From an uncultured Spirochaetota bacterium (GTDB lineage: Bacteria > Spirochaetota > Spirochaetia > SZUA-6 > DRHE01), in assembly GCA_963736785.1 (NCBI GenBank), contig CAVTQG010000053.1, positions 64,039-128,038 on the forward strand: a DNA stretch of 64,000 nt, in the 5' to 3' direction. The notes under the pieces were generated by a model. The model ran no database searches. It worked only from the letters and a program-made list of their open reading frames with translations, and had not been told where the DNA came from. Position 1 is the first letter of the stretch. Each line of letters starts with the position of its first letter. Below, one piece after another: positions 18,063 through 60,527 of this stretch. The translations under genes and the position numbers were made by a program.

Positions 18063-19858
18063 GTGGAGCCGTTCGCACTGGCGCCGGTGCCGCGGCGCCT
18101 GCGCACCGCGCGGGGAAGCTTCCCCGTGCCGCCGGGCCTGGCCGAGCGGCTGGACGGCTACACGGTGGGTGCGGCCGTTCCGGCCGGCATCACCGCGCAA
18201 GTGGACCGCGCCCGGGTGCGCCGTGCCCAGGGCTACGATCTGCTGGTGCGGCCCGGGGAGGTGCGCCTGCTGGCCGCGGACCCCGCTGGGCTCTACTACG
18301 GGGTGGCCACGCTGCGGCAGCTGCTGCGCCAGGCGGCAAGGACCCTGCCCTGCGTGCACGTCGAGGATTGGCCGGCCTACCCGGTGCGCGGGATCCTGCT
18401 GGACATCAGCCGCGACCGGGTCCCGACCATGGAAACGCTCCGACGGCTCATCGACCTGTGGGCCGGGCTGAAGTACAACCAGGTCCAGTTCTACACCGAG
18501 CACACCTTCGCCTACCCCGCGCACGAGGAGGTGTGGCGGGAGGCCTCGCCGCTCACGCCGGCGGAAATCGAGGAGCTGGACCGCTACTGCCGTGAGCGGG
18601 CCGTCGAGCTGGTGCCCAACCAGAACTCCTTCGGGCATATGGAGCGCTGGCTGCGTCACCCGCGCTACAGGCACCTGGCCGACGCCACGGAGGGCTTCCC
18701 GGACCCCTGGGGGGGGTGGCGCACGGAGCCCACCACGCTCAATCCCCTGGACCCGGGCTCGCTGGAGCTGCTCTGCGGGCTGTACGACGAGTTGCTGCCG
18801 CATTTTTCCAGCCGCCTGCTCAACGTCGGCGGTGACGAGCCCATCGACCTGGGCCACGGCCGCAGCCGCGAGGCCTGTCAGCGGCTGGGGGTGGGCCGGG
18901 TGTACCTGGACTTTTTATCGCAAGGTCCACGAACAGGTCACCCGCCGCGGAAGGCGGATGCAGTGCTACGCGGACGTGCTGGTGCATCACCCGGAGCTGG
19001 TGCGCGAGGTCCCGCGGGACCTGCTCGTCCTGGACTGGGGGTACGAGGCGGACCACCCCTTCGCCGCGGAGTGCAGGACCATCGCCGAGGCGGGATTGCC
19101 CTATTACGTGTGTCCGGGGACCTCCTCGTGGAACTCGCTGGGCGGCCGCTGGAGCAACGCGCGCGCCAACATCCGCGCTGCCGCCCGCGCAGGGCTGGAA
19201 GGCGGCGCGGAGGGGTTCCTGCTCACCGACTGGGGCGACAACGGGCACTGGCAGCAGCTCCCGATTTCGTATCCCGCCTGGGTCTACGGCGCCGCCGCCG
19301 GCTGGGACCCGGGCAGCGAGGAGGGGCTGGACGTGGAGCGCTTCCTGTCGGCCCAGGTGTTCCTGGACCGCAGGGGCGGCGCCGCGCGGGCCCTGGCCCT
19401 CCTGGGGGAGGTCGGCGAGAACCCCGCGGCCGGGCTCCCCAACGCCACCGTCCTGGCCGTACTGCTCCTGCTGACGCTGGAGCCCTACTACCGCGAGGCG
19501 CTGGAGCGCTTCCGGGGCCAGGCCTTCGAGAGGGAGCGGGCTGTGCTCGACGAGGCCCGGCGCCTGCTGGCCGCTTCCGAACCGCGGGCCGACGACGGAG
19601 GGTTGGCGCGCGAAGAGCTGGAGCTCACCGCCGACCTGCTCCTGCACGCGGCCGGCCTGGGGCGGGCGCGTTTCGCCACCCCCGGACTGGCGACCCGCGA
19701 AATCCCGCGTCCGGAGCGCCGGCGCCTGGCCGAGGAGCTGGACGGCCTGACGGCGAGGCTATCGCCGGCTCTGGGCGGCCCGCTCGCGGCCCGGCGGCCT
19801 GGAGGACAGCGCCGGCCGGCTGCTCGCCCTGAAAGGCAGCTATGCGGATCCTGGTTAG
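18063..19858 (+). pseudogene. GH20 beta-N-acetylhexosaminidase, two frame breaks (near 18920 and 19770)
   Basis: Frame 0 piece: ILLDISRDRVP, LNVGGDEPIDLG. The frame 1 piece comes from ORF 18592..20331 (YRKVHEQV...LVLDWGYEADHP...LLTDWGDNGHWQ). The frame 2 tail is RYRRLWAARSRPGGLEDSAGRLLALKGSYADPG*. Confidence 0.8.
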
Positions 19859-21605
19859 CCACGTCGGCTACGACGCGGGCGAGCCCAAGCGGGCGGTGCT
19901 GCAGGCCGACAGGGCCGAGCCCTTCTCCACCGCGCCGCTGGCCTTCCGCCTGGTGGATGCCTCCACCGGCGCCCGGGTCTTCCACGGGCTGGCGCGGTTC
20001 GTGGGGCCCGTGCCCCGCTGGCGGGATTGGGTGTTCTGGACCCTGGATTTCTCCGAGCTGCGGCGGCCGGGGCGCTTCGTGGCCGAGCTGGGTGGCGGCG
20101 GCGGCGTCCTCTCCAAGAGCCAGGCCGGCCGCTCCGAGGCCTTCGAGATCGGGCAGGGCCTGCTGCTGTCCCGCACGGTCCCGGCCGTGCTGGGATACTT
20201 CCGCTCCCAGCGCTGCTCCGGCGCGTTGGACGAGGCGGACCGGCGGGCGCCCTTCTTCGGCGGGCGCGCCGACCGGGTGGACGTGCACGGGGGGTGGTAC
20301 GACGCCTCGGGGGACTGGAGCAAGTACCTGAGCCACCTTTCCTACGCCAACCACCTGAACCCGCAGCACGCCCCCCTGGCCGTCTGGGCCATGCTGGCCG
20401 CCGCCGGGCTGCTGCAGGGCAAGAGCGCGGCCCCGCGGCCGGAGCTGCGGCAAGAGCTGCTGGACGAGGCGCGCTACGGGGCGGAGTTCCTCCAGCGCAT
20501 GCAGGACCCGGCCGGCTATTTCTACATCGGGGTGTTCGACCGCTGGACCCACGAGCCGGCCGAGCGCCGGATCAGCACCTTCCGCGGCCAGCAGGGCGAG
20601 CGGGGCGCGGACTACCAGGCCGGCTACCGCCAGGGCGGGGGCCTGGCCATCGCCGCACTGGCGCGCGCCGCGCGCGACCTGGCCGCGGGCGGGAGCGCCG
20701 GCGGAAGCGAGGACGGCTTCCTGCGGGCCGCCGGACGGGGCTTCGAGCCACCTGGAAGCGCACAACCGCGAGTACCTGGACGACGGCCGCGAGAACATCA
20801 TCGACGACTACTGCGCGCTGCTGGCCGCCGCGGAGCTGTACGCGGCCGCGGGCCGGGGGACGCACCTGCGGGCCGCGCGCCGGCGCGCCCGCCGCCTGGC
20901 CGGGCGCCTGTGCCGGGACGGATCTGCCGCGACTTCTGGCGCGCCGACGCGCGGGGGCGCAGGCCTTTCTTCCACGCCGCCGACGCGGGCCTGCCGGTGG
21001 TCGCCCTGCTGCGCTACGCGGAGGTGGAGCCCTCGGCCGAGCGGGCGGCCGCGGCCAGGCGGGCGGCGCGCCGCTCCCTGGAGTTCGAGCTGGCGATAAC
21101 GGGCCGCACGGCCAATCCCTTCGGTTACGCCAGGCAGTACGTGCAGCCGGTGGACGGGCCGCGGCGGGAGGCCTTCTTCTTCCCGCACCGCAACGAGAGC
21201 GGCTACTGGTGGCAGGGGGAGAACGCCCGCCTGGCCTCGCTGGCGGCCGCCGCGCGCCTCGGCCGCGGCGCGCTGCCCGGCCGAGGAGCGCCTGGCCGCG
21301 CGCCTGGCGGTCTACGCCGCCGACCAGCTCGGCTGGATCCTCGGCTGCAACCCCTTCGACGCCTGTTTCCTGCACGGTTTCGGGCGCAACAACCCGGAGT
21401 ACGAGCCGCCCGTTACCCCAACGCCTACGGCGGCATCTGCAACGGCGTCACCGGCGGCTTCGCCGACGAGGAAGACATCGATTTCCTGCCCTCCCCTTAT
21501 GCGGAGAGCGGGACGCACCGCTGGCGCTGGAGCGAGCAGTGGCTGCCCCACGCGGCCTGGTACCTGTTGGCGGCCTGCGCCGCGAGTGATAGAATCACGG
21601 AATGA
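19842..21605 (+). pseudogene. GH9 glycoside hydrolase with N-terminal Ig-like domain, four frame breaks (near 20748, 20920, 21270, 21408)
   Basis: GH9 signature DVHGGWYDASGDWSKY. The out-of-frame stretches read cleanly in frame 1 (HLEAHNREYLDDGRENIIDDYCALLAAAELY; ARLAVYAADQLGWILGCNPFDACFLHGFGRNNPEY). Confidence 0.75.
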
Positions 21606-21904
21606 AGAAAGTTCTGCTGTTCGCCGGCGTGGCGCTGCTCTGCGCCCTGCTGGCCGGCTGCGCGGCCGGTCCCAACCAGCTGACCAGGACCGCCAACGCC
21701 GAGGGCAAGGTCGGCAACTTCTGGCTCGGGCTGTGGCACGGCCTGATCGCGCCGGTCACCTTCGTCATCTCGCTGTTCTCCAAGTCCGTGACGATGTACG
21801 AGGTGCACAACAACGGCGGCTGGTACAACTTCGGCTTCCTGCTGGGGATGATCATCATCCTGGGAGGCGGGGGCGGCGGGGCCGCGCGGCGCCGCCGGCA
21901 ATAA
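21602..21904 (+). CDS. Small lipoprotein / membrane protein, hypothetical
   Basis: Lipobox LLAGC after MKKVLLFAGVALLCA, two hydrophobic segments, Gly-rich basic tail. ATGA overlap with the GH9 stop. Confidence 0.6.
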   Translation: MKKVLLFAGVALLCALLAGCAAGPNQLTRTANAEGKVGNFWLGLWHGLIAPVTFVISLFSKSVTMYEVHNNGGWYNFGFLLGMIIILGGGGGGAARRRRQ

Positions 21905-21928
21905 GGGGCGCTGGGAGGCGTTTGAGGG

Positions 21929-22147
21929 TCAGGCCCGCAGGGTCAGTTTGTACCGCGCTTCGAGCTTCGTCTTGAGCGCCAGCCCTTCGCAGTCCAGATA
22001 AGGCTCGTCGTCCAGCCTCATCTGGTATTCCATCGCCCGCAGGCAGCCGAGGATGATCCTGAGCTCGTTGGCCGAGAGCTCCAATCTGACTCGCCGGTCG
22101 AGCGCTTTGAGGCTTCTCTCGACGTTTCTGGATACTGTTTGCTGCAC
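21929..22147 (-). CDS. Small hypothetical protein (72 aa from GTG 22147; track ORF extends to 22183)
   Basis: The first 12 codons of the track ORF coincide with a sigma-54 promoter. GTG 22147 has AGGAG 8 nt upstream. No recognisable domain. Confidence 0.4.
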   Translation of the reverse strand: MQQTVSRNVERSLKALDRRVRLELSANELRIILGCLRAMEYQMRLDDEPYLDCEGLALKTKLEARYKLTLRA

Positions 22148-22171
22148 GGCCTGTACTCCTGCTCTTATTAT

Positions 22172-22187
22172 CGCAAGATGCATGCCA
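22172..22187 (-). promoter_or_regulatory. Sigma-54 (-24/-12) promoter TGGCATgcatcTTGCG
   Basis: Exact GG-N10-GC spacing. Lies between the activator gene stop (22236) and the small ORF. Confidence 0.55.
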
Positions 22188-22235
22188 AAGGAATAGGTTT
22201 TTACGGAAAAAGGTATTTTATTTCGTGGTAAGGCA

Positions 22236-23693
22236 TTAGAGAACAGTAACTGGCGCGGGAGAATCAGAATCCCAGCGGAGTGTACCCTTTATTCGACAGT
22301 TTCTGCTTGGAATTATCTGATTCAGCTTCCAGCTGGGGTGGGTCATCCCGAAGCGTTTGATCTTGTAGTTGAGCACGCGGCTGGAAACCCCGAGCAGTTT
22401 CGCCGCCTCTTTCTGGACCCAGCCGGAGCGTTCCAGGGCCTGCTGAACGAAGCTCCGCTCCACCACTTCCAGGTTCACGCCTCCCGGCGGGAGCGTGAGC
22501 TGCCTGTCCCCGTCCGCGGTCGGCTTGCGGTCGAACGTCCGCCCCAGTCCCCCCAGGGTCACGTTTTCCCCTTCGCACAGCAGGACCGCCCTCTCCACGG
22601 TGTTTTCCAGCTCGCGGATGTTGCCCGGCCAGTGGTAGCTCAGCAGCGCCTCAAGCGCCGCGGAGTCCATCCCTTTGATTTTTTTGTTCAGGGCCACGGC
22701 GAACTTCTTCAGGAAAAACTGGATCAGCAGACGGAGATCGTCGCCGCGCTCGCGCAGGGGAGGCAGATGTATCGCCACCACGTTCAGGCGGTAATAGAGG
22801 TCTTCCCGGAACTTCCCCTGCTCGATCTGCTTCAACAGATCCTTGTTGGTGGCGGACAGGATCCGGACGTCGGTCTTCACGGTCTGGCTGCTGCCCAGCC
22901 GCTCGAACTCCCGCTCCTGCAGCACCCTGAGCACCTTGGCCTGGGTGTAGAGGCTCATGTCGGCGACTTCGTCCAGAAAAATCGTCCCGCCCGAGGCCTG
23001 CTCGAAGCGTCCGATCCGGAGCTTTTCCGCCCCGGTGAAGGCGCCCTTCTCGTAGCCGAACAGCTCGCTTTCCAGGAGCTGTTCCGGCAGCGCCGCGCAG
23101 TTCACCCGCACGAACGGGCCCTTGCTCCGGTCGCTGTTGTAGTGGATCGCGCCGGCGACCAGCTCCTTGCCGGTGCCGGTTTCGCCGGTGATGAGGACGC
23201 TCGAGTTGGTGTTGGCCACCAGGTTGACGATCCTGAAGGCCGCTTTGATCTCCGGGCACTCGCCGATGAAGTTGTACGGCTGGTAGACGTTGCGGAAGCG
23301 GTCGGTGACCGCCTCTTCCTTGCGCGGCTCCTGGTGTTTTTCAAGAGCCTTCTTGATCTGGAAGGCCAGTTCCGGCAGGCTGAAAGGCTTCTGGATGATC
23401 CCGAACGCCCCCTCTTTTACGGCGCGCACTCCTTCCTGCACCGTGTCGATTTCGGAGTTTACGATGACGAGGGTGCTGGGATTCTTATCCTTCACCGCCG
23501 CCACCAGGGCTCGAATGGTTCCCCCCGGAATGCTGACGTCGCTGATGATAATGTCGAATTCTTCCTTCCTGATCAGCTCGAGGGCGGCGGAATAGTCGGA
23601 GGCCTTTTTCGCCAGATTGCCGGTGCTGTGCAGATAGTTGCAGACGTCTTCGCACAGGCTCGTGTCTTTGTCGACTACCAGGAGTTTTCGCAT
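22236..23693 (-). CDS. Sigma-54-dependent response regulator (NtrC family: REC + AAA+ + Fis HTH)
   Basis: Start MRKLLVVDKD at 23693. Motifs VLITGETGTGKE, ESELFGYEKGAFTGA, HTH KEAAKLLGVSSRVLNYKIKRFG. The track ORF start 23873 is an extension. Confidence 0.9.
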   Translation of the reverse strand: MRKLLVVDKDTSLCEDVCNYLHSTGNLAKKASDYSAALELIRKEEFDIIISDVSIPGGTIRALVAAVKDKNPSTLVIVNSEIDTVQEGVRAVKEGAFGIIQKPFSLPELAFQIKKALEKHQEPRKEEAVTDRFRNVYQPYNFIGECPEIKAAFRIVNLVANTNSSVLITGETGTGKELVAGAIHYNSDRSKGPFVRVNCAALPEQLLESELFGYEKGAFTGAEKLRIGRFEQASGGTIFLDEVADMSLYTQAKVLRVLQEREFERLGSSQTVKTDVRILSATNKDLLKQIEQGKFREDLYYRLNVVAIHLPPLRERGDDLRLLIQFFLKKFAVALNKKIKGMDSAALEALLSYHWPGNIRELENTVERAVLLCEGENVTLGGLGRTFDRKPTADGDRQLTLPPGGVNLEVVERSFVQQALERSGWVQKEAAKLLGVSSRVLNYKIKRFGMTHPSWKLNQIIPSRNCRIKGTLRWDSDSPAPVTVL

Positions 23694-23772
23694 AGTCCGC
23701 AGCGCGATTTCCTGTACTTGCCCCGCTATTCCACGCGCGATTATACTAGAAATAGCCCCTTTTGTCGTTGCC

Positions 23773-24826
23773 CTGGAGGATATTACGGAGCTCTCGAAGG
23801 TCGAAAAACTCAAGAAACTCTCCTTTTTCGCCGGTCTTTCCGAGTACGACCTCCACCAGATCGACCAGATCACGGTGGAAAAGCACTATGCCGCGGGAGA
23901 GTCGATCGTCGAGGAGAACGCCACGGCGGAGCGGTTCTTCATCATCGCCAAGGGGAAGATCCAGATCGTCAAGCGCTTCGAGAACGGGGAGCAGCTCGTC
24001 CTGGGCGTGCACAGCGACGGGGAGTTCTTCGGCGAGATGGCGCTGCTGGATGAAGGTCCGCGCTCGGCGACCGTCCGGGCCGTGGATTCCACGACGGTCG
24101 TGGAGATCGCCCGGAAGGATTTCGAAACGCTCATCTACAAGTCGCCGGTCCTGGCCTACAGCATCATGCGGGAGCTCAGCTCGCGGCTGCGCGAGACGGC
24201 GGCCCTGCTGATTTCCCACCTGCAGCGCAGGAACCGCGAGCTCTCCCAGTCCTATCTCGACACCGTCAACATCGTCATGCAGGCCATCGAGGCGCGGGAC
24301 TCCTACACCCGTGGGCACACGGAACGGGTCACCGATCTGGCCAAGGCGATCGGCGAACAGCTGAAGCTCTCGGAAGAGCAGCTCTTCAACCTGGAAATCG
24401 GATCACTGCTCCACGACGTGGGCCAGATCAGCGTTCCCGCCGCCATATTGCAAAAGCCAGGTCCGCTGGAGCGAGGACGAATTCGCCCGGGTCAAAAAGC
24501 ACCCGGAGGAGGGGAAGAAGATCGTCGAGCCGATTCCCTACCTCGAGGAGGCGGTCTCCACGATCCTGTATCACCACGAGCGTTTCGACGGTTCCGGCTA
24601 CCCCGAAAAGCTCCAGGGCCAGCAGATCCCGCTGGCCGGGCGGATCATCGCAGTAGCGGACGTTTTCGATGCGCTGACCAACGATCGCCCCTATCGTGAC
24701 CGTTTGCCCGCGGAGCAGGCGATCCAGCTGATAATAGAAGGAAAAGGAAGCAAGTTCGATCCCGTAGTGGTCGATGTGTTCCTTAAGGTCGTAAAAACCT
24801 ACAAGCCGAGACCGGCGAGACAGTAG
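23773..24826 (+). pseudogene. cNMP-binding domain + HD-GYP phosphodiesterase, one frame break near 24468; start codon unresolved
   Basis: cNMP domain FFAGLSEYDLHQI...GEFFGEMALLD...RSATVRA. HD-GYP motifs TRGHTERV, LLHDVGQ, and after the shift SEDEFARVKKHPEEG...HHERFDGSGYP...ADVFDALTNDRPYR, ending at TAG 24824-24826. Confidence 0.8.
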
Positions 24827-24842
24827 GAATACGTGTAAGATA

Positions 24843-24858
24843 GTTACAGTATTGTAAC
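24843..24858. promoter_or_regulatory. Palindrome GTTACAgtatTGTAAC, candidate activator or operator site
   Basis: Perfect 6-bp arms about 100 bp upstream of the PilZ sigma-54 promoter, in a low-GC spacer. Confidence 0.3.
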
Positions 24859-24956
24859 GGGAAAGCCAGCTTCCCTGCGTTCCGGGGAGGGGCTGTCGTT
24901 TCACTAATATTCGATGGATTAAGGAATTAGCGAAAAAAACTCCTCGTTTCCATGCT

Positions 24957-24972
24957 TGGCATGAGGTTTGCA
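24957..24972 (+). promoter_or_regulatory. Sigma-54 (-24/-12) promoter TGGCATgaggtTTGCA
   Basis: Near-consensus match with correct spacing, 26 nt upstream of the PilZ ATG. AGGACGAGGG lies between them. Confidence 0.65.
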
Positions 24973-24997
24973 TGCTTGATGATAGAAGGACGAGGGT

Positions 24998-25303
24998 ATG
25001 GACGAAAGAGAAATGCAGCAGGAAAGAAGAGACCTTTCGCGGTTTGACTTGAGACTGCGTTCCATGCTCAAGAAGCTGCAGGACGGCGAGAGCCTGGAGC
25101 TCTTCACGCGCGATGTTTCCTCCAAGGGAGCATACTTCTACACGGGCAGCCCTCTTCCGATCGACACGGGCCTCGCCATGACCCTGTTTCTGCCCGTCGG
25201 GCAAACCACCAGCAAGATCAGCGTGGCCGGAAAAGTGGTTCGAACCGAAGACGACGGCATGGCGGTCCGGTTCGATCCCAGCTACACCCTCGTCTCCGCT
25301 TGA
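24998..25303 (+). CDS. PilZ-domain c-di-GMP receptor
   Basis: 101 aa with RRDLSR (RxxxR) and DVSSKG (DxSxxG). Confidence 0.8.
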   Translation: MDEREMQQERRDLSRFDLRLRSMLKKLQDGESLELFTRDVSSKGAYFYTGSPLPIDTGLAMTLFLPVGQTTSKISVAGKVVRTEDDGMAVRFDPSYTLVSA

Positions 25304-25310
25304 GCCTTTC

Positions 25311-26138
25311 CTAGTCCCCTTGCCCCGCGGGCAGCTCCGCCAGCGCTTCCATGAGGCGGCGGCGGTAGCGCTCCTGCGCGGCGGCGTTGCGCCGTTCGGC
25401 CAGGCGACCGGCGTTGCCGATGTTGCCGATGTAATAGCGCCGCAGCGGGAAGAGCACCAGCAGCACGGCCTCCGGGTAGTAGCCGTACACGGCGGCCGCG
25501 GCGGCCAGGACCGTGATCCCGCCGTTCACCGCCAGGGCGTTCAGCGCGTCCGGGACCTCCCCGCCGTAGGCCTGGCCCGCTCCCGGTAGAAACGCCGACA
25601 GCAGCCGGGCCGCGCGCGGGGACTTGCGCCTGCACCGCCGGGCCTCGGCCAGGAGCTCCCGCAGGGGCTGCAGCTCCGCGTCCGGGAAGGCCTGCCCCAG
25701 GGCCTCTTCGGCCTCCGCCCAGCGGCCCTGGTCGATGCGCAGCACGGCCAGGTACAGGAAAAGACCACCCTCCCGTTCCCCGAAGAAGGCGCGCAGGCGC
25801 AGCAGCTCCAGTTCGGCCTCCGTGTCCTTGCCGGCCTCCAGCAGGGCCCGCACCAGGTCCAGCCGGCGCTCCAGCCTCTCCGGCTCCTCCCCGGCGGCCG
25901 CCTGGCGCAGCGCAGCCAGCCCCTCGCCGTACCGCCCCTCGGCCAGGAGGCAGAAACCCAGCCGGGACCGGACCTCGCCCGCGCGGGCATCCTCCGGGTT
26001 GAAGAACAGGAACCGCTTGTACTCGGTCACCGCCTCGGAGAAGGCCCCGGAGCGCTGGAAGGCCTCGCCCAGGACCAGGGCCGGGTCGGCGGGGGACCCA
26101 CCGGTCAGCAGCAGGGCGAGCGCCAGCTCAGGGAGCAT
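25311..26138 (-). CDS. TPR-like repeat protein with C-terminal membrane segment, hypothetical (paralog A)
   Basis: 275 aa. Helical repeats, then SAFLPGAGQAYGGEVPDALNALAVNGGITVLAAAAAVYG. Clearly homologous to the next gene. Confidence 0.6.
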   Translation of the reverse strand: MLPELALALLLTGGSPADPALVLGEAFQRSGAFSEAVTEYKRFLFFNPEDARAGEVRSRLGFCLLAEGRYGEGLAALRQAAAGEEPERLERRLDLVRALLEAGKDTEAELELLRLRAFFGEREGGLFLYLAVLRIDQGRWAEAEEALGQAFPDAELQPLRELLAEARRCRRKSPRAARLLSAFLPGAGQAYGGEVPDALNALAVNGGITVLAAAAAVYGYYPEAVLLVLFPLRRYYIGNIGNAGRLAERRNAAAQERYRRRLMEALAELPAGQGD

Positions 26139-58979: not shown

Positions 58980-58995
58980 TGCAAGCGCCGTGCCA
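58980..58995 (-). promoter_or_regulatory. Consensus sigma-54 promoter TGGCACggcgcTTGCA
   Basis: Minus strand reads ccgccTGGCACGGCGCTTGCAgtaccgggaccATG. Full match to TGGCACG-N4-TTGCW. Only 12 nt separate the TTGC element from the ATG, and there is no SD. Confidence 0.75.
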
Positions 58996-59111: not shown

Positions 59112-60527
59112 CTACGTCCCGGACTTGAGCCGCTTGTTCAGGGCCTGGTGGGAGATCCCGAGTAGGCCGGCGGCGATGCTCTGATTCCCGCCGGACCGCT
59201 TGAGGGCCTCCGCGATCAGCAGCTCCCGGACCTGCCGCAGGGTGGGGAGGCGGGCCGGGAAGACCGCGCTTTCGGCGGGCGAGGCCGCCGGAGCCGGCAA
59301 GCCGGGCGATGCCCCGGGCCTGGCCCGGTCCATCAGCTCCTGGAACGGGGCCAGGAGAAGCTCTCCCGCCGGGCTCATGGCCAGGGAATTGATCACCGCC
59401 TGGCGCAGCTCGCGGATATTGCCCGGAAACTCGCAGGCCTGCAGTTGCCTCACCAGCTCCGCGGGCACGGGCGGAATTTCCTTGCCCAGCTTCTCGGCCG
59501 CGTCACGGAGCAGGTCGGCGAGCAGCAGGGGCAGGTCGTCCGCGCGCTCCCGCAGCGGCGGGACGTGCAGCCGGTGGGTCGAGATCCGGTAGTAGAGGTC
59601 GTGGCGGAACTTCCCCTCGGCCATCCGCGCCTCCAGGTCCCGGTTGGTGGTGGCCACAATCCGGGCGGTGCTGCGCTTCGGCAGGTCGGCGCCGAGGGGC
59701 AGGTACTCGCCGGAGTCCAGCAGGCGCAGCAGCTTGACCTGGGAGGTCGGGCTCAGGTCCCCGATCTCGTCCAGCAGGAGCGTCCCGCCGTCCGCCTGCT
59801 GGACCATGCCGCGCAGCGCCTCCAGGGCGCCGGTATAGGCGCCCTTGTAGTGCCCGAAAAGGGTGTTGGCGAACTGCTCGTCGTCCATGCCGGCGACGTT
59901 GGCGGGGACGAACAGCCCCGCCCGCCCGCTCGACCGGTGCACGGCCCGGGCGATGCGCTCCTTGCCCACGCCCGTTTCCCCGGTGATCAGCACCGGTTCG
60001 CCGGAGCCGGCGATGGCCTCGATGATCAGGAAGACGGCGTGCATGGTCCGGTTGTTCGTGGTGATGTCCGCGAAGGCCTGCGGGTTGGACAGGGTGGGGG
60101 AGAGCAGCTTGCCTTTCAACCGGCTGCAGGTTCGCTCCAGCTGCCGGGCGGACAGGGCCTGCTTCACCCCGCCGGCCAGCCGGCTCTCCTCCACCGGCTT
60201 GACCATGTAATCGAAGGCCCCGGCGCGCATGCAGTCCACGGCCGCCCGCACCTCGTCCCTGGCGGTGACCACGATCACGGGGACCTGGGGGAAGCCGGCG
60301 CGGAGGTCCGCCAGCAGCCGCTCTCCGGGGATGTGGGGCAGCCCCAGGTCCAGCAGCACCGCCTCCGGATGGCGCGCGCCCACCAGCTCCAGCGCCTGCC
60401 GCTCGTCCGCGCAGCCCAGGACGTTGCCCAGGCCGTTGGCCTTGAGCATGGCGGTCAGGCTGGTCAGCACTGTCGGCTCGTCGTCCACGATCAGGATCAG
60501 CTCCTCGGAAACGGGAAGGGCGCTCAC
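59112..60527 (-). CDS. Sigma-54-dependent response regulator (REC + AAA+ + Fis HTH)
   Basis: LILIVDDEP...LLDLGLP receiver, VLITGETGVGKE, GAYTGA loop, HTH QSIAAGLLGISHQALNKRLK. The GTG start is 1 nt after the kinase stop. Confidence 0.9.
   Translation of the reverse strand: MSALPVSEELILIVDDEPTVLTSLTAMLKANGLGNVLGCADERQALELVGARHPEAVLLDLGLPHIPGERLLADLRAGFPQVPVIVVTARDEVRAAVDCMRAGAFDYMVKPVEESRLAGGVKQALSARQLERTCSRLKGKLLSPTLSNPQAFADITTNNRTMHAVFLIIEAIAGSGEPVLITGETGVGKERIARAVHRSSGRAGLFVPANVAGMDDEQFANTLFGHYKGAYTGALEALRGMVQQADGGTLLLDEIGDLSPTSQVKLLRLLDSGEYLPLGADLPKRSTARIVATTNRDLEARMAEGKFRHDLYYRISTHRLHVPPLRERADDLPLLLADLLRDAAEKLGKEIPPVPAELVRQLQACEFPGNIRELRQAVINSLAMSPAGELLLAPFQELMDRARPGASPGLPAPAASPAESAVFPARLPTLRQVRELLIAEALKRSGGNQSIAAGLLGISHQALNKRLKSGT

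Follow-up and report, generated by a model that had tools for sequence, protein, structure and literature searches.

What does a sigma-54 activator serve when no kinase gene adjoins it and genes for cyclic-nucleotide proteins lie beside it? The question is raised by a block of four genes (positions 21929 to 25303) in the window, by which is meant the whole stretch of 64,000 nucleotides that was analysed. The window corresponds to C53:64039-128038 of a metagenome-assembled genome (MAG) of an uncultured Spirochaetota bacterium, coded G000 in the comparisons. The block comprises a small open reading frame (ORF) of no described family, the gene of an enhancer-binding protein (bEBP-A), a divergent gene predicted to encode a cyclic mononucleotide (cNMP)-binding HD-GYP phosphodiesterase, and the gene of a single-domain PilZ protein. 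A preliminary description, made from the letters of this DNA, had read the block as an orphan sigma-54 activator with two −24/−12 promoters, one before the PilZ gene and one before the small ORF, and with a palindromic enhancer upstream of the PilZ promoter. The five features that it lists were each found in the sequence at the positions given. Comparative support for this core reading is strong, and the block is probably part of a conserved sigma-54 regulon of spirochaetes that governs second-messenger proteins.

The G000 MAG comprises 3.97 Mb in 63 contigs, is 70% complete and has a GC content of 67%. It was compared with 40 related genomes (G codes), with a set of 21 family genomes and with additional metagenome or public contigs (L codes). 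Seven Joint Genome Institute (JGI) metagenome contigs that are 91-96% identical to the window, L040 among them, served as a sister set, and the gene order of the block is reproduced in all seven. Four more distant contigs, L061 to L064, were retrieved through homologues of the small ORF.

Conserved promoters and a shared enhancer core

The PilZ promoter TGGCATGAGGTTTGCA (24957..24972, plus strand) is a −24/−12 element that is kept before orthologous genes: a GG-N10-GC element was found 36-79 nt 5' of the start codon in 11 of the 11 PilZ orthologues examined. The promoter of the small ORF, TGGCATGCATCTTGCG (22172..22187, minus strand), lies just downstream of the activator gene. GG-N10-GC stands in the same place before the small-ORF orthologues (7/7 examined), one of which has TTGT at −12, and the sister strains read TGGCAC in this promoter. 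Sigma-54 promoters also precede the small ORF in L061 to L064 and, in L061 and L062, a 112-aa PilZ gene as well. The preliminary description had placed one promoter just downstream of the activator, before a 72-aa ORF, and the other before the PilZ gene, and had named a lack of conservation of the motifs in related genomes as a refutation. Both proved to be conserved.

Counts of the motif TGGCA-N6-TTGC gave three sites in the window against 0.52 expected, and 29 in the whole of G000, which is about the chance number. Ten of these 29 sites lie less than 3 kb from one of the 17 or so activator genes of the genome, where about 0.75 would be expected. The rpoN gene of G000 was located at C20:55143-55613 (PF04552, 185.9 bits).

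The candidate enhancer, or upstream activating sequence (UAS), is the palindrome GTTACAgtatTGTAAC (24843..24858, no strand assigned) with the core TTAC-N6-GTAA, situated 98 nt 5' of the PilZ promoter. By window statistics the palindrome alone was not significant, 21 of 100 shuffles yielding a site with two or fewer mismatches; a claim of significance on that ground was rejected, and the support for the palindrome lies in its conservation. Sites of the form (A/G)TTACA-N4-TGTAA(T/C) precede the PilZ gene in G000, in a sister strain and in eight genomes of genus g2, with 126-128 nt between the start of TTACA and the end of the −12 element. Of 11 PilZ loci, 10 have the palindrome at a constant distance from the gene, and G002 carries a copy with one mismatch at the same distance. 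In G002, G005, G014, G017 and G018 the same palindrome precedes the promoter of the small ORF by 120-124 nt. The perfect palindrome that had been noticed about 100 bp before the PilZ promoter, at the usual enhancer distance, is thus conserved together with its spacing.

When the upstream regions were aligned, invariant islands were almost confined to the two halves of the enhancer, the promoter's TGG and TTGC, and a short AT-rich block halfway between enhancer and promoter; the intergenic DNA around the conserved promoter elements is otherwise unalignable. Every PilZ locus has this AT-rich block (TA.T ... TTA, at about 24895-24935 and equivalent positions), which might bind a DNA-bending protein or be intrinsically bent.

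Enhancer and promoter were combined in the pattern TTACA-N4-TGTAA-N(80-110)-TGGYA-N6-YTGC, with the reversed pattern as a control. The search returned 14 matches in the 21 family genomes and none for the control. The matches span 119-128 nt within the permitted 109-139 and lie before PilZ (seven), the small ORF (five) and genes of the MPYQ family (two), with no other targets. Proteins of this last family have about 215 aa, start with MPYQLKNG and carry a C-terminal cNMP_binding domain; their genes occur in 17 of the 21 family genomes, all with TTGGTACRRCGATTGC promoters. The MPYQ upstream regions contain tandem TTAC(G/A)-N4-(C/T)GTAA-like sites, and because these vary at the flanking G/A and C/T, the common core was taken to be TTAC-N6-GTAA. 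In exact form this core occurs only seven times in the 3.97 Mb of G000. Moreover, 6 of 117 relaxed sigma-54-like sites in G000 have a core with at most one mismatch within 160 nt upstream, where about 0.5 would be expected. Four of the six belong to PilZ, the small ORF and the MPYQ genes of two contigs; the remaining two, C41:2712 and C54:1152, are unverified. At C41:2712 (minus strand), the sigma-54-like promoter TGGCATGCCCGTTGCA precedes the gene of a 62-aa protein (MEKIDILVKGLPVPTHNMFKG...), and the one-mismatch core ATGACGTTTTTGTAAC starts 118 nt upstream of its TGG; this could be an extra member of the regulon or a chance match.

Two further sites were recognised before the small ORF of G000. 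The sequence GGTACACTCCGCTGGGAT (22269..22286, minus strand) is a degenerate remnant of the ancestral small-ORF enhancer, as judged by alignment with ATTACACTCCTGTAAT of G002 and with other genomes, and relatives read (A/G)TTACA-N4-TGTAA(T/G) at this position. The quasi-enhancer GTTACTGTTCTCTAAT (22235..22250, minus strand) has one mismatch to TTAC-N6-GTAA, is identical in six sister contigs and is separated by 62 nt from the −24 TGG of the promoter that follows it, closer than usual; its function is uncertain. The −24/−12 element and the Shine-Dalgarno sequence of the small ORF are intact in G000.

In the circuit proposed here, an NtrC-class activator would bind as a dimer to the palindrome TTAC-N6-GTAA, some 100 bp upstream of the −24/−12 promoters. 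DNA looping and ATP hydrolysis by the activator would then allow the sigma-54 RNA polymerase complexes to open. The genes served would be those of the single-domain PilZ receptor for cyclic di-GMP (c-di-GMP), of the 72-aa three-helix protein and, at another place in the genome, of the 215-aa cNMP-binding protein. Transcription of the PilZ gene and of the small ORF would accordingly be sigma-54 dependent, and bEBP-A, rather than the paralogue described below, is the presumed ligand of the palindrome. The PilZ protein is predicted to bind c-di-GMP and the HD-GYP protein to degrade it.

A third sigma-54 promoter, TGGCACGGCGCTTGCA, was seen in the window at 58980-58995 (minus strand), immediately after another activator gene, whose AAA+ domain lies at 59568-60062 (minus strand). 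The ORF that follows it starts with MKILLIQPP. The same layout of an activator followed by a promoter also occurs at C1:12549, C13:19973 and C47:20037.

The activator, its paralogue and their neighbours

The bEBP-A gene (22313..23693, minus strand) encodes a protein with a receiver domain (REC), a sigma-54 AAA+ domain and a Fis-type helix-turn-helix (HTH), to judge from its Pfam matches to Response_reg, Sigma54_activat, AAA_lid_14 and HTH_8. Scores were 54.4 bits for PF00072, 242.8 bits for PF00158 and 47.7 bits for PF02954, the Fis-type HTH. The motifs GAFTGA, GETGTGKE (Walker A) and FLDEV are present in the translation, and orthologues are 69-72% identical. The best NCBIfam similarities are to AtoC and NtrC, no equivalog cut-off being reached (best AtoC, 423 bits against 714).

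As assembled, the ORF runs over 22236-23693 (minus strand), the extent given in the preliminary description, and is overlong by 26 codons. The window has a base at 22319 that is absent from all six sister contigs covering this position, one of which is otherwise identical over the stretch. In the sister contigs the activator ends with SWKLNR* at 459 aa, as it does in relatives, at a stop equivalent to window 22313-22315. The 26 additional codons are thus a consequence of the extra base, and the true length of bEBP-A is probably 459 aa. The gene is present at the locus as described, but the 3' end assigned to it was most likely false, the stop lying at about 22313-22315. With the extra codons read as artefactual, the control region of the small ORF is intergenic.

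No kinase gene adjoins the activator here or in any relative locus inspected, so that the earlier reading as an NtrC-type response regulator with no adjacent kinase agrees both with the domains and with the relatives. The receivers were aligned against CheY. In this alignment bEBP-A keeps the equivalents of D57 and K109, while the CheY-D13 equivalent is K, S, R or T, and the T87 equivalent N, Q or D, in every member of the clade. Most A-type activators retain the phospho-acceptor Asp, which is replaced by N in G002 and by Q in all B-type proteins. With a degenerate acidic pocket and no adjoining kinase, control of the activator by phosphorylation appears doubtful. Of the circuit first suggested, the phosphorylation step is the weakest part.

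A paralogous module was found at C9:2900-6330 and C40:11000-13800 of G000, in copies that are 98-100% identical; the segment is either genuinely duplicated or derives from two strains binned together. It consists of an MPYQ gene, an oppositely oriented gene for a cNMP-binding protein with a degenerate HD-GYP remnant, and the bEBP-B gene, which has the orientation of the first. A sigma-54 promoter at C9:3255, with the two tandem sites GTTTCAGTTTTGTAAC and ATTTCACTCTTGTAAT, precedes the MPYQ gene. The two activators are 59% identical, their recognition helices are nearly identical, and the constant neighbour of both is a cNMP-binding protein. In G004, G019 and G020 the small ORF is missing and the sole activator of the clade lies in a B-type module, yet the PilZ gene keeps a perfect enhancer and promoter. 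As these PilZ sites are kept without an A-type activator, the enhancer is probably read by the activator clade as a whole, and expression of PilZ in G000 could depend on one of the two paralogues or on both.

Conservation of gene order in relatives had been named as a check on the preliminary description, and the outcome was divided. The activator followed by the small ORF is kept in the same five genomes that carry the palindrome before the small-ORF promoter, with activators 69-72% identical, and the divergent pair of HD-GYP and activator genes is kept in L022, L023 and L040. The conserved core, as read from these gene orders, is the cNMP-HD-GYP gene divergent from the activator gene, which is followed by the small ORF. 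Adjacency to PilZ is not general, most of these relatives having the PilZ gene on a different contig. G002 belongs to the same genus as G000, and its PilZ gene is flanked by the two neighbours known from G000 (genes for a 100-aa membrane protein and a TPR protein) with no activator block in between. Since the neighbours are the same and the block is missing, the activator module appears to have been moved next to PilZ by a rearrangement in the G000 lineage, and this is the better description of the block. The four genes also lie together, in different arrangements, in G021, which belongs to another family, and in contig L062, which additionally has an MPYQ homologue and a second activator. In other lineages, PilZ-domain genes for proteins of 218 and about 345 aa recur a few kb away from the activator and small-ORF genes, at L021:6476-7132, at L024:7485-8141 and in L061 to L064. 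In genus g2, genes for FN3-like lipoproteins follow the small ORF.

The small ORF (21929..22144, minus strand) encodes 71-72 residues and has a GTG start preceded by an AGGAG Shine-Dalgarno sequence. The start at 22144 agrees with 8 orthologues and with the JGI gene calls (72 residues) on the seven sister contigs, in keeping with the earlier remark that the first 12 codons of the longer ORF 21929..22183 are in fact the promoter. Conservation of the ORF, another of the checks proposed at that stage, was also seen: orthologues with 47-54% identity occur in 8 of the 40 related genomes, and 289 homologues were collected, all annotated as hypothetical. The protein had no match in Pfam or NCBIfam. 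Its AlphaFold2 model is a three-helix bundle (predicted local distance difference test score, pLDDT, 84.5), and a Foldseek search of the PDB with this model returned only noise (best E = 2.4). The small ORF lies directly before a PilZ orthologue of about 100-112 aa in G021 and L062, and near longer PilZ-domain genes in L061, L063 and L064. As the small ORF recurs next to genes with a PilZ domain and to the activator gene, its protein was assigned to the signalling module, in which it could act as a partner of PilZ or in feedback on the activator.

The PilZ gene (24998..25303, plus strand) encodes 101 aa and matches PF07238 with 33.8 bits (cut-off 22.5). The motifs RxxxR and DxSxxG, reported as intact in the preliminary description of a single-domain PilZ gene, are invariant across 12 orthologues. 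Orthologues with 41-65% identity occur in 13 of the 40 related genomes, and an exact look-up of the window PilZ protein returned no record.

The divergent gene (23773..24826, plus strand) encodes a predicted cNMP-binding HD-GYP phosphodiesterase, with Pfam matches on its two halves. A cNMP_binding domain is followed by HD_5, and the motifs LLHDVG and YHHERFDGSGYP (HHERFDGSGYP) are present. The PF13487 scores of the two halves are 37.3 and 111.4 bits, and the HD_5 profile is split at positions 63/72 by a +1 frameshift with an extra base at about 24472. In the sister contig L040 the gene is uninterrupted (368 aa), and it forms one frame in all relatives. The domains and motifs are thus those named earlier, but the frameshift had been missed. 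In the window no in-frame ATG, GTG or TTG was found before the cNMP domain. L040 has an in-frame TTG whose counterpart in G000, at window 23718, is shifted by one base from the frame, and the more distant relative L022 has a clear ATG (MAKGSKIPKLKR); the anomaly could result from a third indel or a non-canonical start. A consensus scan of the divergent intergenic region gave the sigma-70-like sequences TTGCCC-18-TATACT (23718-23747, plus strand), facing the HD-GYP gene, and ACGACA-17-TATAAT (23768-23740, minus strand), facing the activator gene; a similar TTGCCA-17-TATAGT is present in L022. The two genes would apparently be transcribed divergently from these back-to-back sigma-70-type promoters.

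Further split genes were observed in the same MAG. The glycosidase genes at window 18063-21605 are split into adjacent frames, as are three other sigma-54 activator genes of G000 (C15:1730-2217, C62:43272-43770 and C53:3989-4472). The assembly seems to carry frequent single-base indels, and frameshifts or odd gene ends elsewhere in G000 should not be taken at face value. An Rfam scan of 21500-25600 gave no riboswitch and no other credible RNA, and a terminator scan gave nothing exceeding the shuffled background.

The GC content of the four-gene block is 0.58-0.61, compared with 0.67 for the genome, 0.70-0.76 for the flanks and 0.64-0.72 for the paralogous B module. A horizontally acquired 3-kb island was considered and set aside: other parts of the window have an equally low GC content, and the PilZ gene of G002 is also GC-poor at the same syntenic site without the block.

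Alternatives to the proposed circuit

Several observations weigh against the circuit. A single palindrome precedes the PilZ gene, and many activators use two or more enhancer sites. The ancestral enhancer of the small ORF is degenerate in this species, which leaves a one-mismatch site unusually close to the promoter. In the present assembly the HD-GYP gene is interrupted and has no canonical start codon. Finally, the paralogue bEBP-B, with its near-identical HTH, is encoded in the same genome, so that the adjoining bEBP-A is not the only candidate for the PilZ enhancer. It is conceivable, if somewhat unlikely, that the PilZ promoter is driven mainly by bEBP-B from C9/C40, that bEBP-A serves only the small ORF, and that their adjacency is incidental. 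The perfect PilZ sites in the three genomes with only a B-type module activator and no small ORF agree with this, as do the nearly identical recognition helices and the PilZ gene of G002, which has no activator block beside it. Nevertheless, PilZ and an A-type module have come to lie side by side on separate occasions, in the G000 lineage, G021 and L062. The MPYQ sites tend to be tandem TTACG/TTTCA...CGTAA, whereas those of PilZ and the small ORF are single TTACA...TGTAA sites, which hints at discrimination, and the two assignments are not mutually exclusive. A regulatory input other than phosphorylation may also be envisaged. The activator might not be a two-component protein at all, its receiver having lost the acidic pocket and its divergent cNMP-binding neighbour, with or without a live HD-GYP domain, being a sensing partner in a NifL/NifA-like pair gated by a cyclic nucleotide. 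The outputs of the pair would be PilZ, the three-helix protein, working with PilZ or feeding back on the activator, and a further, undescribed cNMP-binding protein. A sensor-partner arrangement as such is a reasonable, if tentative, idea; the whole of this reading is rather unlikely, and if true, it would represent a previously undescribed module of free-living spirochaetes that cross-wires cAMP/cGMP, c-di-GMP and sigma-54.

The damage to the block admits another reading, namely that both frameshifts are real, the HD-GYP gene being a pseudogene, the activator having a 26-residue tail and the circuit decaying. The extra bases at 22319 and about 24472 are indeed in the assembly, and neither lies within a homopolymer run; but six independent sister contigs lack the base at 22319, the HD-GYP gene is intact in L040 and all relatives, and the other split genes of the MAG point to a general indel problem. 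Because the same MAG has three more frame-split activator genes and broken glycosidase genes, the two extra bases are likely to be assembly errors, and decay of the circuit is considered unlikely. The palindrome itself might instead serve a response regulator of the OmpR family (CopR/CusR-like) as its operator and be no sigma-54 enhancer. The only other perfect TTACA-N4-TGTAA sites in G000, C20:150121 (CATTACAGATTTGTAATG) and C20:152249 (CTTACAAACGTGTAAT), flank a gene pair for an OmpR-type regulator and a histidine kinase, and regulators of the CopR/CusR/CzcR type bind palindromes built of GTAAT half-sites (PMC11195947). The two C20 sites resemble a CopR/CusR-class box and appear unrelated to sigma-54. 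The palindrome of the block, by contrast, keeps a fixed distance of about 100 nt from the conserved −24/−12 elements of the PilZ, small-ORF and MPYQ genes, accompanies the activator gene from genus to genus and has no conserved sigma-70 promoter beside it, all of which makes an OmpR-type operator very improbable. That the −24/−12 matches and the palindrome are mere chance in AT-richer intergenic DNA, with ordinary promoters serving the genes, can hardly be credited. The genome-wide count of TGGCA-N6-TTGC near expectation and the insignificance of the palindrome alone in the window would fit such a view; it is opposed by position-specific conservation at more than 15 loci in otherwise unalignable DNA, by the lack of matches to the reversed control and by the enrichment of sigma-54-like sites beside activator genes. 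A sigma-54 regulon built on the shared enhancer core is the preferred reading.

Relation to known systems

None of the titles and abstracts returned by literature searches dealt with this regulon of spirochaetes, with its enhancer or with either of the unnamed protein families. The locus offers a testable regulon in an uncultured high-GC spirochaete lineage, with a defined enhancer, two or three promoters and a very small target set made up almost entirely of second-messenger proteins. It also provides a first functional context for two unannotated families, the 72-aa helical protein and the MPYQ cNMP-binding protein.

The circuit is of the classical NtrC-class enhancer/sigma-54 architecture. 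It resembles NtrC/glnAp2, ZraR and AtoC in combining REC, AAA+ (GAFTGA) and Fis-type HTH domains, in the palindromic enhancer about 100 bp from GG-N10-GC and in the position of a target beside the activator gene. Unlike the NtrC-type systems, it has no adjoining kinase, a receiver without the CheY D13 and T87 equivalents (the paralogous clade also lacking the phospho-acceptor Asp) and a single site before PilZ. To our knowledge, the enhancer core TTAC-N6-GTAA is not that of any described activator.

Within the spirochaetes, Borrelia burgdorferi has the Rrp2-RpoN-RpoS pathway, in which a REC-AAA+ sigma-54 activator has rpoS as its sigma-54 target, together with the PilZ receptor PlzA and the HD-GYP phosphodiesterase PdeB. 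The likeness extends to an activator of this architecture, a PilZ receptor and an HD-GYP phosphodiesterase in a spirochaete; the sigma-54 target differs, and we know of no description of the Borrelia PilZ gene as sigma-54 dependent. The NifL-NifA pair offers a parallel in that the gene of a sensory protein, here cNMP-binding and with or without a live HD-GYP domain, is kept beside the activator gene in both the A and B modules. In contrast to NifL-NifA, the genes are divergent and not co-transcribed, and the sensory domain is a cNMP-binding one and not PAS/GHKL.

FleQ, FlrA, VpsR and BerB are sigma-54-type activators that bind c-di-GMP themselves, and they share with the present system the tie between sigma-54 activators and c-di-GMP signalling. 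In bEBP-A no c-di-GMP site was recognisable, and the link runs instead through the targets and the neighbouring gene. The block would thus represent a spirochaetal case of sigma-54 activators controlling genes for c-di-GMP reception and turnover.

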